DNA of 64,000 nt from an uncultured Planctomycetales bacterium (GCA_964374105.1 CAYJXI010000006.1:2177-66176), one strand, 5' to 3'. Shown: positions 10,023-12,843, counted from the stretch's first letter. The notes: generated by a model from the sequence alone, not told the origin. Numbers and translations: made by a program.

Positions 10023-10536
10023 TTGATGACTGCTTGATAGCGGTACATATTATTTTTCCCCCTTTCGTTGATGAACGCGAAAATCGACTGCGTCCCGAAG
10101 GGTCGACCTTTGCCGACATTATAGCATGCGTTTTTCTATCCGCAAACCATACTGCAGGATAAATCTTCTGACCCGGGCCGGTATTCATTTTCTTAAAATT
10201 ATTTTAATACCACATGAGCCAGAACGCATTGTGGACAGGAACGTTATCGTTTAAAGGGAAAGCGTTTTCCCCTCAATATGCCGCCCTCTTGTAACTAGGG
10301 TATTGATAAGGTATATTTATTACAAGAGATACAAACAGCAAATTATGTGTTCTTTAAAAATTTTATCGTAAACGGCCATTGTAAAAAGTAAACTGCTCGC
10401 AAGGGTAGGACCCCTGGATCACCTGGTTCAGGGCGTTGTCCTGATGGCGGACAACGACAAAGCTATAGGGCCCTGCCGCCTTCTAAAAGAGGCGGGGTTG
10501 CCAGTTGCCAATGGATTAAACTTTTAACTACCCAAA

Positions 10537-10574
10537 CCTATTCTTCGAGTTGCGGAATAGGTTTTTTATTTTGT
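10537..10574 (+). terminator. Rho-independent terminator-like hairpin (CCTATTCttcgagttgcgGAATAGG plus a T-run), immediately upstream of the 744-aa gene
   Basis: 7-bp perfect stem followed by TTTTTTATTTT. No annotated ORF lies upstream of it on the + strand in 10025-10536. Confidence 0.5.
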
Positions 10575-10608
10575 CCGGGATTTTTTATCTCAAGGGAGTT
10601 GTATTGCT

Positions 10609-12843
10609 GTGAAAAAAATTACTTTGTCGATAGCGATTGCACTGTTCCTCTGTTCATCGGTGTATGGGGAATCGATAACGCTTACGACCTACTACCCCGC
10701 ACCATTTGGCGCCTACGCGCGCTTGCATCTGGTGCCGATGCCTAGTATATCCGAACCTTGTATTCCCGGGACTATGTATGTCACCACGAACTTTGAGTTA
10801 CTGCTCTGTCATGGGGATGGGACCTTTGGACGTGTGGATTTGTGGGAGCAATTCAAGGACCCAGGCCCGCCCGCCGTCAATTGGGTTTTCCCCGCAGACA
10901 CAGATTTGAACCTAAAGGTCGGCATTGGGACCCAGTCGCCAGGATTTACTCTTCACGTTGAAAATGCCGGCGGCATCCTTGCTTGGAAGGATCCGGCTGT
11001 ATCCTCGGATCCGCTTCCCGCCTCGGTCAATGGACCGGGAATAAAATTCTTCTTTCACCCCTATAAAGGAGGGGCCTTGCGCGCGGGGCGTATTGGCTGG
11101 GCCGGCACGGATGATTATTGGGACGATGCAAATATCGGTGTCAACTCAGTTGCCTTCGGACATAGTACAAGAGCAACTCAGTCATATTCCACTGTCAGTG
11201 GAGGACAGCTTAATGACAACACCGCTATTTATGGAACTATTGGGGGTGGTTGGTCCAATACTGTCTCTGGAGGAGCAGTGGAAATTGCTCCCACAGTTGG
11301 TGGTGGCTATGGGAACCAAGCCACAAAACAATATGCGACAGTTGGTGGAGGAACATTAAATACAGCTACGGCAAATCATGCTACTGTTGGCGGTGGGAAT
11401 AATAACCATGCCACGAATATCTCCTCTATTGTTGGGGGTGGTGCTGCGAATAATGCAACTGGCAACTCTTCTGCAATTACCGGAGGGAGTGGAAATACTG
11501 CTGATGGAAATTATTCTTTTATCGGTGGCGGTAACAGTAACAGTGCAGGAACGGCGAGCACAAACACTTATTCCACTGTTGTTGGGGGACGCAATAACGT
11601 TGCTAGTGGGACTTATGCAACCATTGGGGGTGGAGGCGGTCCCCTGGCGGCCGGTAGTGATAGGTCAATAGGTTTCACTGGTAATTTGGCCAGCGGAGGG
11701 AATTCTACAGTTGGTGGTGGTGTGGGCAACTGGGCCCTTGATTCATGGGCAACAGTTGCGGGAGGGCAAGAGAACACAGCTGACCACTTAGGTTTTGTTG
11801 GTGGAGGAAGTCATAACAATGCCTATGGTTATGCCGCTGCTATTAGTGGCGGGGTCAATAACAGAATTGGGATTAGCGGTAACACGGCTTCAGCAGCTGA
11901 GGGATTTATTGGTGGAGGTATTAGCAATGTCATTGAAGGAGGTTCTACAGACTCCGCAACGATCTGTGGTGGTACTGGTAATAAAATCGAAGGAGGAAAA
12001 GATTATGCTTCCATATTAGGTGGGACTGCTAATAGGGCTAGGGGATGGTATTCTTCTGTCATTGGTGGCTTTCAGAGTGAAGCCAACGGGGACTATGCGA
12101 TTGCCGGAGGAAATTATTCCATTGCCAATGGCACTGCGTCTTTGGCTATTTGCAATGGTAATTGCGAGGCCAACGGAAATTCTTCTTTTGTCATGGGAGG
12201 AGGTACCGCCGACGGATTAGGATCCGTTATATTTTGGGCCCCTGCCACTGGTATCAATGTACCTGACGCAGATGGGGATTATAGTTTTATCGGAGGAGGT
12301 GGAGGAATCGATACCTCTGCCCTAGCAGACAGTACCTTTGTCTGGGGAAAACACCTTGGTTTTGGCATCACGATTAGTGAGCCCAATGGCTTCTTTATCT
12401 TCCCAGGAGATGTGCGGGGGAATGTTGGCATCGGCGTCACCAGCACGGCAGGGTTTAGACTCAATGTCAATGGAGCCACTGCCAATACAACCGGTGTTTG
12501 GGCGAATCTCTCCGATGGACGTTTAAAAAAGAATATCAACCCCTTAGAAGAAGGATCTTTGGATAAAATCCTTCAGTTGCGGGGCGTAAATTTCGAATGG
12601 AAAGACCCTCAGTATGGCAACGTTACAGGGTCGCAGAAAGGATTTATTGGTCAAGAGGTTGAGGAAGTTTTTCCGGAATGGGTCATCACTGATGGGAATG
12701 GCTATAAGGCCTTAAATCCCGTTGGCATCAACGCTGTTTTTGTCGAGGCCTTTAAGGAATTGAATGCTAAAGTGGATGTCTTAAAAGAAGAAAATGAAAA
12801 TCTAAAAAGCCGGATCAAGGAATTAGAAGGAAAAGTCCAGTAA
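10609..12843 (+). CDS. Secreted Gly-rich beta-helical repeat protein with a C-terminal tail-fibre/endosialidase intramolecular chaperone domain (Peptidase_S74, PF13884-like)
   Basis: GTG start and signal peptide MKKITLSIAIALFLCSSVYG. Dozens of short repeats of the form (S/A)xVGGGxxNxAxGxxS. The C-terminus reads SDGRLKKNINPLEEGSLDKILQLRGVNFEWKD...KGFIGQEVEEVFPEWV...GYKALNPVGINAVFVEAFKELNAKVDVLKEENENLK. This matches the auto-processing chaperone motif (sDrrlKenI.pl...l..L.pv.y.wk....hiGfIAqEve.v.Pe.V). Confidence 0.7.
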   Translation: MKKITLSIAIALFLCSSVYGESITLTTYYPAPFGAYARLHLVPMPSISEPCIPGTMYVTTNFELLLCHGDGTFGRVDLWEQFKDPGPPAVNWVFPADTDLNLKVGIGTQSPGFTLHVENAGGILAWKDPAVSSDPLPASVNGPGIKFFFHPYKGGALRAGRIGWAGTDDYWDDANIGVNSVAFGHSTRATQSYSTVSGGQLNDNTAIYGTIGGGWSNTVSGGAVEIAPTVGGGYGNQATKQYATVGGGTLNTATANHATVGGGNNNHATNISSIVGGGAANNATGNSSAITGGSGNTADGNYSFIGGGNSNSAGTASTNTYSTVVGGRNNVASGTYATIGGGGGPLAAGSDRSIGFTGNLASGGNSTVGGGVGNWALDSWATVAGGQENTADHLGFVGGGSHNNAYGYAAAISGGVNNRIGISGNTASAAEGFIGGGISNVIEGGSTDSATICGGTGNKIEGGKDYASILGGTANRARGWYSSVIGGFQSEANGDYAIAGGNYSIANGTASLAICNGNCEANGNSSFVMGGGTADGLGSVIFWAPATGINVPDADGDYSFIGGGGGIDTSALADSTFVWGKHLGFGITISEPNGFFIFPGDVRGNVGIGVTSTAGFRLNVNGATANTTGVWANLSDGRLKKNINPLEEGSLDKILQLRGVNFEWKDPQYGNVTGSQKGFIGQEVEEVFPEWVITDGNGYKALNPVGINAVFVEAFKELNAKVDVLKEENENLKSRIKELEGKVQ

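Follow-up and report, generated by a model that had tools for sequence, protein, structure and literature searches.

A GEMM-I riboswitch candidate with a two-hairpin insertion upstream of a predicted secreted fibre gene of Omnitrophota

Surface and motility genes form the usual regulon of GEMM riboswitches (PMC1950547). As originally described, the GEMM stem P1 combines a 2-bp and a 6-bp stem, a 3-nt internal loop and a GNRA loop; an AAA linker comes next (PMC1950547). In the GEMM-I class, position G20 reads G-alpha of cyclic di-GMP (c-di-GMP); riboswitches for cyclic GMP-AMP (cGAMP) have an A there (PMC6140456, PMC6456294). A G20A exchange makes the Vibrio cholerae aptamer Vc2 bispecific, and A20G turns Gmet_0970 from cGAMP to c-di-GMP selectivity (PMC6140456, PMC6456294). 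Residue C44 leaves its helix for a long-range C44-G83 pair that is essential to folding and binding (PMC11705072). In the OFF switch Cd1, an antiterminator competes with the aptamer and the terminator, which can form side by side (PMC9262584). Here, an RNA leader is described that lies in a stretch of 64,000 nt, below called the window, deposited for an uncultured Planctomycetales bacterium (GCA_964374105.1, CAYJXI010000006.1:2177-66176). The leader (10374-10572) precedes a gene for a predicted secreted fibre protein (10609-12843). It is probably, though by no means certainly, a GEMM-I (c-di-GMP-I class) riboswitch that acts as a terminator-controlled OFF switch for a predicted cyclic dinucleotide. 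Outside 26003-44417, the features of the window are on the plus strand. RNA residues are numbered as in Vc2, and their roles are taken from PMC6140456 and PMC11705072.

Aptamer and two-hairpin insertion

The aptamer (10374-10517, the full extent of the match to Model R1) contains all parts of the GEMM-I core, P2, the AAA linker and P3 within P1; in the alignment of five sequences presented below, 92-100% of cells are paired per helix. Its layout is P1, UAAAAA, P2, A-AA, P3 (AGCU...AGUU), GC and the 3' strand of P1. P1 is formed by CCAUUG (10376-10381) and CAAUGG (10509-10514). P2, named P1b in the Vc2 nomenclature, spans 10388-10408 and comprises an AAA internal loop, a 6-bp CUGCUC/GGGUAG stem and a GCAA tetraloop of the GNRA type; its basal GU (10388-10389) pairs with AC at 10457-10458. 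P3 (P2 in the Vc2 nomenclature; 10461-10506) has a basal AGCU/AGUU helix with GG/CC above it and a distal hairpin (GCCGCCUU...GAGGCGG). By alignment, the ligand-contact equivalents are A20 (10387; G in Vc2), A47 (10459) and C92 (10508), and the interhelix pair C44-G83 corresponds to 10411 and 10500; of these residues, A47, C92, C44 and G83 are kept. The region 10370-10610 folds with z = -2.77, and its minimum-free-energy structure contains, in this order, P1, a GCAA-capped hairpin, two more hairpins, a fourth hairpin and a terminator. A preliminary description of the window had pointed to two GC-rich stems in front of the fibre gene. Both are part of this fold: the first, GCGTTGTCC...GGACAACG, is 10434-10456, and the second, CCGCC...GGCGG, lies inside 10476-10495 in the distal hairpin of P3. 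ARAGORN finds no tmRNA or tRNA in the window, and such an origin of the GC-rich leader was rejected.

The 2-bp stem of P2 closes only across an insert of 45 nt (10412-10456) that interrupts its 3' strand between C44 and position 45, so that P2 reads GU-AAA-CUGCUC-GCAA-GGGUAG-GAC, insert, AC. Hairpin a (CCCUGGAUC-ACCU-GGUUCAGGG, 10412-10433) follows directly 3' of the C44 equivalent, and hairpin b (CGUUGUCC-UGAUGGC-GGACAACG, 10434-10456) abuts the AC that closes P2. The insert is located 2 bp from the ligand pocket and would make P2 a four-way junction. An outward-pointing insertion after C44 is structurally plausible because the backbone is already kinked at this residue.

A metagenome scan by P2 sequence pattern yielded at least 120 loci (loci from this and the other searches are designated L plus a number). 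Among the matches listed, 5 of 138 distinct GEMM-I-like P2 elements have additional nucleotides between GG(A/G)C and (A/G)CAAAGC: the window (45 nt), L014 from Omnitrophota RS_6_36 (48 nt), L162 (56 nt), L199 (60 nt) and L177 (76 nt). Each of the five inserts alone folds end to end into exactly two abutting hairpins, with z-scores of -4.4, -2.0, -4.2, -2.4 and -2.0 (the value for the window is -4.43). Apart from a CC(C/A)UG...C(A/U)GG base in four of them, they have no common sequence, and the lengths of their hairpins vary (22-44 nt and 23-32 nt). That the insert might be mobile or repeated was also considered and rejected, as it is present in a single copy in the window and the five inserts lack sequence similarity. 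A covariance model was built from the window and L014 with a hand-written structure. It aligns both hairpins in L162 (62 bits), L199 (52.9 bits) and L177 (39.5 bits) and deletes both in about 130 other GEMM-I matches. In the alignment of the five sequences, standard pairs occupy 97.2% of cells, and two-sided changes are found in 22 of 39 pairs, including 6 of 9 in hairpin a (helix 4) and 6 of 7 in hairpin b (helix 5). None of 500 shuffles reached the observed pairing, and slid controls were 25-45% paired. The genes behind the insert variants encode two proteins with a TLTTYYPAP motif (see below), one TPS-like protein and two small secreted proteins.

In an Rfam scan at permissive threshold, the leader matched RF03167 (c-di-GMP-I-GGC) at 10378-10513 with 20.3 bits (threshold 59, E 0.23), and a 44-nt gap was forced into the alignment. 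Its score against RF01051 (clan CL00126; threshold 35 bits) was lower still, so that the gathering threshold was not reached; the same holds for all five insert variants. This failure is attributed to the conserved structural insertion. Leaders with a near-identical core but no insert, located upstream of fibre homologues, pass the RF01051 threshold in all four cases: L003 (Omnitrophota; in front of the first of two tandem S74 genes; 48.4 bits), L011 (5' of an S74 fibre homologue; 46.3 bits), L028 (5' of a TLTTYYPAP-module gene whose open reading frame (ORF) is cut at the contig end; 45.3 bits) and L207 (upstream of P0036; 58.6 bits). A riboswitch was found in just 3 of 78 genome loci retrieved by the N-terminal motif (L011, L014 and L028). 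This means, the pairing of riboswitch and fibre gene recurs but is not universal. The preliminary description had suggested a riboswitch- or attenuator-type leader. What emerged is a GEMM-I aptamer with a conserved insertion and a terminator behind it, and a structure that recurs with compensatory changes in independent sequences; the Rfam match is to the c-di-GMP-I family in the right register, but its score remains below the threshold. The leader RNA is considered homologous to the GEMM-I class and would work like it.

Terminator control, ligand and alternative readings

An intrinsic terminator (AACCUAUUC/GAAUAGGUU then UUUUUUAUUUU; 10535-10572) starts 21 nt past P1 and has no nucleotide in common with the aptamer. 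It had already been recognized in the preliminary description, there at 10537-10574, and has the form AACCTATTC-loop-GAATAGGTT plus TTTTTTATTTT; with a loop of more than 8 nt, it escapes a simple terminator scan. Terminators homologous to it (CCUAUUC... or CCCAUUC...) are located after the aptamer in L003, L006, L011, L014, L028 and many other loci. The minimum-free-energy fold of the full-length leader holds aptamer and terminator together. For a transcript cut before the 3' strand of the terminator, the minimum-free-energy fold (-61.9 kcal/mol) contains a 14-bp helix between 10395-10409 and 10537-10550. The first strand of this proposed antiterminator, GCUCGCAAGGGUAGG, runs from the last part of the 5' strand of P2 through its loop and 3' strand, and the second covers, as CCUAUUCUUCGAGU, the 5' strand of the terminator and its loop. 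Across loci the two partners vary yet stay complementary: GGGUAGG or GGAUAGG is combined with CCUAUUC, and GGAUGGG with CCCAUUC. The duplex between P2 and terminator beats 91-99% of shuffles in nine tested loci (fractions of 0.008-0.09 each), and in 12 of 27 loci, among them both riboswitches of the window, the truncated transcript has the antiterminator as its minimum-free-energy fold.

These pairings suggest the following mechanism. Without ligand, the newly synthesized 5' strand of the terminator (10537-10550) would invade P2 via 10395-10409, the terminator would form late, and RNA polymerase would read into the fibre gene. With ligand bound, P2 would be locked in the aptamer, the hairpin 10535-10563 with its U-tract would form, and transcription would stop. 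It is proposed with moderate confidence that ligand binding causes termination, i.e., that the leader is an OFF switch of the Cd1 type.

The ligand is predicted to be a cyclic dinucleotide. Position 20 is an A (10387) both in Rfam's alignment and in the manual register. Among the matches listed, A20 is present in 5 of 138 GEMM-I-like P2 elements; in the window and in L003, it is found upstream of genes for S74 fibres. A G20 is carried by L014, L006, L011, L207 and the second riboswitch of the window, and among the five insertion variants A20 is confined to the window. Judged by this residue, cGAMP-preferring or bispecific binding by the leader is a live possibility. GGDEF or CD-NTase domains were not seen among the window ORFs scanned, which are part of the ORFs in the 64 kb. 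One could go further and propose both that the insertion defines a distinct unannotated GEMM-I subclass and that its A20 member in the window is a true 3'3'-cGAMP sensor in Omnitrophota; this combined proposal is considered rather unlikely. If it were true, cGAMP signalling would operate in an uncultured, host-dependent phylum beside c-di-GMP signalling, for which the G20 riboswitch at 45253 stands, and cGAMP would turn off a self-processing attachment fibre. If the A20 aptamer were cGAMP-selective, riboswitch-based cGAMP signalling would reach past the few groups, chiefly Geobacter, in which it is found.

How the aptamer communicates with the terminator can also be read the other way. An ON switch of the same class, in which the ligand prevents termination as in Geobacter GEMM-Ib and in the first GEMM model, would be in line with the many GEMM terminators that overlap the aptamer 3' side (PMC1950547), with the pilM and pgcA cGAMP riboswitches, which are ON switches (PMC6456294, PMC9262584), and with a second platform type among the metagenome loci (CUGCCGAC...GGCAG) that overlaps the aptamer 3' end. 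It is nevertheless unlikely for the window, where the terminator is separate from the aptamer, so that both can coexist, and where the single strong alternative pairing removes P2 and not the terminator's partner. In addition, ON logic is less likely because nothing required by the terminator is tied up in the folded aptamer. A decayed riboswitch, whose insert has killed binding and whose leader is a constitutive attenuator or terminator or has no function, would explain the Rfam score under the threshold, the distance of only 2 bp between insert and pocket and the position in a rearranged locus associated with an insertion sequence (IS). This reading is improbable, since the same insertion architecture has been kept by compensatory changes in five unrelated sequences, all ligand- and tertiary-contact residues are kept (A/G20, C44, A47, G83, C92), P1 is intact and the complementarity of the platform has been maintained.

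The inserted hairpins might add a second input, for instance a protein site or a second ligand, or shift the specificity. Their conserved structure next to the binding pocket, their combination with A20 in the window and the existence in Rfam of GEMM-I variants with altered pocket nucleotides (RF03167) are compatible with this idea. It is given an equally low probability as decay: loops and lengths of the hairpins are not conserved, which argues against a specific binding site, and A20 occurs in the window only among the insertion variants. Least probable is an independent small RNA, the transcript 10374-10572 being itself functional and not mainly a regulator of the fibre gene; it had been raised in the preliminary description and is not favoured here. 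An OFF riboswitch does yield a stable terminated RNA of about 200 nt, and the Vc2 riboswitch is reported to control how stable a small RNA upstream of it is (bioRxiv 10.1101/617340). However, a gene with a secreted or surface product always follows the element directly on the same strand, its start codon being 35-370 nt away; the element recurs 5' of homologous fibre genes in L003, L006, L011, L014, L028 and L207, and nothing points to a trans target.

Several observations weigh against the preferred reading of the leader as a GEMM-I OFF switch. Its score is just 20.3 bits compared to Rfam thresholds of 35 and 59, its P3 is devoid of the canonical 11-nt tetraloop receptor, and insertion variants account for just 5 of the 138 GEMM-I-like P2 among the matches listed. 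About half of the GEMM RNAs also lack the tetraloop receptor (PMC1950547). The covariation comes from five sequences whose alignment was fitted to a model from two of them, and the counts are biased towards structure. In 15 of 27 loci, among them L014, a structure other than the antiterminator has the minimum free energy, and the shuffle tests are individually weak for each locus. As to the ligand, the A20 call rests on alignment, and natural A20 aptamers span the range from cGAMP-selective to bispecific. Finally, the sigma-70-like candidate promoter (TTGTAA-17-TATATT, 10289-10317, 9 of 12 positions), about 60 nt 5' of the aptamer, is a bare consensus match, and such matches are no commoner in the region than in shuffles.

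Fibre protein and genomic setting

The fibre ORF (10609-12843) begins with a GTG start codon, is preceded by an AAGGGAG ribosome-binding site at a distance of 11 nt and encodes 744 aa. The N-terminus consists of MKK, a hydrophobic stretch and VYG|ES, followed by the strongly conserved ITLTTYYPAPFGAY. A signal peptide (aa 1-20) is succeeded by a conserved N-terminal module that starts with ITLTTYYPAPFGAY (aa 23 to about 175), Gly-rich beta-roll repeats (aa about 176-575) with a VGIGV neck next, an S74 chaperone (aa 635-692) and a coiled coil (aa about 705-744). The Peptidase_S74/intramolecular chaperone domain (PF13884; 12511-12684) was detected by Pfam with E 1.1e-15 and 58.1 bits (cut-off 22). 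At its start, within the motif SDGRLK, lie the predicted nucleophile Ser635 (12511-12513) and Lys640 (12526-12528); the segment NLSDGRLKKNIN is encoded at 12505-12540. Lys640 does not vary in an alignment of ten sequences, and Ser635 is conserved to at least 90%. The spacing of five residues is the same as in the Ser/Lys dyad of endosialidase. Searched against PDB sequences, the last 143 aa matched the tail-fibre protein 8jov (E 2e-6, SDGRLK opposite SDERLK), the MyRF ICA domain 7dc3 and phage S16 gp37 6f45.

The AlphaFold2 model has a mean pLDDT (predicted local distance difference test) of 72, with values above 90 across aa 170-340. Its top Foldseek match in the PDB is the UspA1 head 3pr7_A (E 2.3e-5, 33% identity, 274 columns); further matches are MyRF ICA 7dc3, the Fusobacterium adhesin CbpF 9gh4 and the intramolecular chaperones of endosialidase and GP12 (3gud, 3gw6). 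The (S/A)xVGGGxxNxAxGxxS repeats are present, both as direct-repeat families D5-D9 and in the alignment consensus. Pfam YadA_head was found in the paralogue L006 3055-5316 (E 1.6e-10); it gave no match in the target protein at E <= 0.1. No Pfam match to a YadA-type C-terminal membrane-anchor beta-barrel was obtained for the fibre protein, whose C-terminus is S74 plus coiled coil, and it is therefore not classed as a trimeric autotransporter adhesin. NCBIfam has no family model for it.

The same protein is encoded on the 79-kb contig CAMTXN010000026.1 of the metagenome-assembled genome (MAG) GCA_947085705.1 and on a Logan contig from run ERR3478686. A database search retrieved 2,856 proteins at E <= 1e-3; named relatives are annotated as 'tail fiber domain-containing protein' in MAGs of Omnitrophota, WOR-3, Zixibacteria, Planctomycetota and Phycisphaerae. 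Homologous genes have housekeeping neighbours (pyrR, pyrB, rpmA, glmS), and among IMG/VR viral contigs neither a relative of the fibre protein nor the riboswitch P2 pattern was found. Taken together, homology and gene context support a cellular, secreted fibre whose body is YadA-like and whose self-cleaving chaperone is of the phage type. The main elements of this assignment had been anticipated in the preliminary description: the C-terminal S74 chaperone with its quoted motifs is borne out by Pfam, PDB sequence matches and Foldseek, its autoprocessing dyad is found as Ser635/Lys640, the repeats of the YadA-head or tail-fibre-like body are real with the UspA1 head as best fold match, and a cellular rather than a prophage origin agrees with the neighbours and the IMG/VR result. 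What tempers the picture is that secretion, trimerisation and self-cleavage are deduced from homology. The S74 domain would drive trimerisation and then cut itself off at Ser635 to leave a mature fibre, probably an adhesin, on the cell surface of an Omnitrophota bacterium.

The motif (T/K)(L/A)TTYYPAPxGxY (10675-10720, aa 23-37 in the window) is located right after the signal peptide and is common to at least 78 loci (L009-L086) from Omnitrophota, Elusimicrobia and MAGs labelled Planctomycetia, whose proteins otherwise differ. These 78 genome loci were obtained with a search by a five-sequence alignment keyed on the N-terminal motif, and most of them have only the N-terminal module in common with the fibre protein. 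A relative with the motif was not found in IMG/VR, and no Pfam or NCBIfam model spans it. The module may serve lineage-specific sorting or anchoring. Since most of the 78 loci are Omnitrophota MAGs, the window very probably derives from an Omnitrophota genome. Behind the other insert-type riboswitch of Omnitrophota, L014 (JAGLNJ010000098.1, RS_6_36) encodes a TLTTYYPAP homologue (2518-4185). Its C-terminus is Hint/intein-like and not S74 (Pfam Intein_splicing E 1.3e-7, Hint_2 E 1e-4), so that two different self-cleaving C-terminal modules occur in one protein family. In L003 and L007, PyrR-binding-site RNAs (RF00515; cut-off 54 bits) were found 5' of pyrR and divergent from the fibre genes: the former (1770-1889, minus strand) is just under the cut-off with 46.9 bits, the latter (640-765, minus strand) above it with 65.8 bits. 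The pyrR-adjacent fibre locus is conserved between two Omnitrophota genomes.

The fibre locus is flanked by two 250-nt direct repeats that are 99% identical. Copy 1 (9773-10022) starts with about 37 nt left over from an IS end and further contains a terminator hairpin (9922-9947) and the initial 26 nt of the ORF for a MORN protein; copy 2 (14268-14517) overlaps the right end of an ISL3-family element and the start of the MORN gene. The MORN gene itself (14477/14492-15847) encodes a lipoprotein-like product (MORN_2 E 4e-75), and its upstream terminator is the one duplicated in copy 1. The ISL3 element (12925-14304) is bounded by inverted repeats (about 12925-12944 and 14285-14304; repeat I2) that match at 14 of 16 positions. 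Its transposase ORF (13052-14125) matches DDE_Tnp_ISL3 with E 1.3e-42 over profile positions 2-195 of 240. A frameshift had been suspected and proved to be an in-frame stop codon: TAA at 14123-14125 splits the gene into 357 and 55 codons, the same frame continues to 14293, and the conserved ISL3 C-terminus lies in frame beyond the TAA. No 8-bp target duplication of the element was seen, and a plasmid BLAST of the IS region gave no match. Copy 2 begins with the right end of the IS (~37 nt); copy 1 has the same remnant with three differences and without the IS body. The Logan contig L002 equals window 9993-14330 and ends 31 nt past the last difference between the copies, as expected of a k = 31 unitig provided that the sample contains both copies. 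The cassette of leader, fibre gene and IS probably arrived by IS-associated recombination. The preliminary description had regarded the fibre gene as cargo between the repeats, together with an ISL3. Repeats and ISL3 are indeed present; however, the transposase carries an in-frame stop and a target duplication was not seen, and as the repeats begin with an IS end, the history of the locus is one of some rearrangement. 'Cargo' is plausible but just partly supported.

Directly downstream, ORF 15856-25971 encodes 3371 aa with Pro/Gly/Gln-rich low-complexity tracts, repeated units of about 110 aa and two C-terminal modules of about 480 aa, each with LLHEYVH, an HExxH-like zincin motif; NCBIfam returned weak SMC-like coiled-coil matches only. 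The region 26003-44417 is rich in genes for secreted or surface proteins: a subtilase (26003-29602), a PEP-CTERM protein (32200-33240), two dockerin-domain proteins (33357-35483 and 35560-37800 on the minus strand, the second also with a di-haem oxidoreductase domain) and an NlpC/P60 plus SH3b protein (42966-44417). It is followed by a second GEMM-I element (45253-45447) that matches RF01051 with 37.6 bits (threshold 35), carries G20 and has a P3 expanded into several hairpins. Its terminator, GCCCATTCTTTGAATAGAATGGGC plus T6, is located at 45493-45522 and the downstream ORF (45543-46604) encodes 353 aa with an apparent signal peptide and Glu-rich repeats; this protein has no Pfam or NCBIfam match. 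Genes 3' of the retrieved GEMM-I elements code for type IV pilins, TPS/haemagglutinin-like proteins, lipoproteins and TLTTYYPAP proteins. Tandem GEMM-I pairs 5' of type IV pilin genes (KKGFTLIELMVV...) are present in L092, L132, L135, L140, L182, L183, L188, L190, L197, L198 and L201; in their platform, the terminator CUGCCGAC...GGCAG overlaps the 3' end of the aptamer. Tandem GEMM arrangements are already known.

Significance and comparison with known systems

The insert-bearing leader is a modestly new structural variant of a well-known riboswitch class. The searchable literature, which is incomplete, describes no insertion in GEMM P1/P1b, though Rfam full alignments may hold such members unremarked; nor does it describe riboswitch control of S74 fibres or Omnitrophota riboswitches. 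A conserved GEMM-I sub-form that stays below the threshold in five of five cases constitutes an annotation blind spot, and as Rfam misses it, regulons of cyclic dinucleotides would be under-counted in uncultured phyla. An insertion after C44, so near the pocket, is a natural test of the tolerance of the GEMM-I fold and might be of use in biosensor engineering. Furthermore, second-messenger control would be tied to secreted Omnitrophota fibres with a YadA-like body and an S74 chaperone. Omnitrophota are ultra-small bacteria presumed to attach to other cells or to prey on them, which makes the fibre a candidate for regulated host attachment.

Among the riboswitches, the closest relative is the c-di-GMP-I aptamer Vc2 (RF01051). 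Both RNAs have P1, the P2 stems with AAA loop and GNRA tetraloop, the AAA linker, P3 and the equivalents of C44/G83, A47 and C92, and both are located in the 5' untranslated region of a gene for a surface protein with an intrinsic terminator next to them. The leader differs by its 45-nt two-hairpin insert with the predicted four-way junction, by A20 instead of G, by the lack of the 11-nt tetraloop receptor and by its sub-threshold Rfam score. With the GEMM-Ib cGAMP riboswitches of Geobacter (pgcA/GSU1761, Gmet_0970, pilM), it shares the A20/A47/C92 signature, and these likewise regulate extracellular or surface structures. In contrast to the leader, which has a separate terminator, is predicted to be an OFF switch and comes from another phylum, the Geobacter riboswitches are ON switches whose terminator overlaps the aptamer. 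The predicted regulatory logic resembles that of the OFF switch Cd1 from Clostridioides difficile: the antiterminator would unfold part of the aptamer, and the ligand would promote termination. Whereas the antiterminator of Cd1 uses the 3' aptamer strand by the pocket, the one proposed here uses the P2 3' strand plus loop, about 130 nt 5' of its partner.

The C-terminus of the fibre protein corresponds in sequence, fold and Ser-x4-Lys dyad to the endosialidase/tailspike chaperones (3gw6, 3gud) and to MyRF ICA (7dc3). As in the endosialidase/tailspike proteins, it is C-terminal after a beta-helical fibre, with a coiled coil next to it. The difference is that the predicted chaperone is part of a cellular protein with a signal peptide and not of a phage tail protein. 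The body shares with the heads of YadA, UspA1 and CbpF the left-handed beta-roll of xxVGGGxxNxAxGxxS repeats. Pfam detected no YadA-type membrane anchor in the fibre protein, which is presumably trimerised by S74 instead, and the N-terminal TLTTYYPAP module is not part of the YadA, UspA1 or CbpF adhesins.

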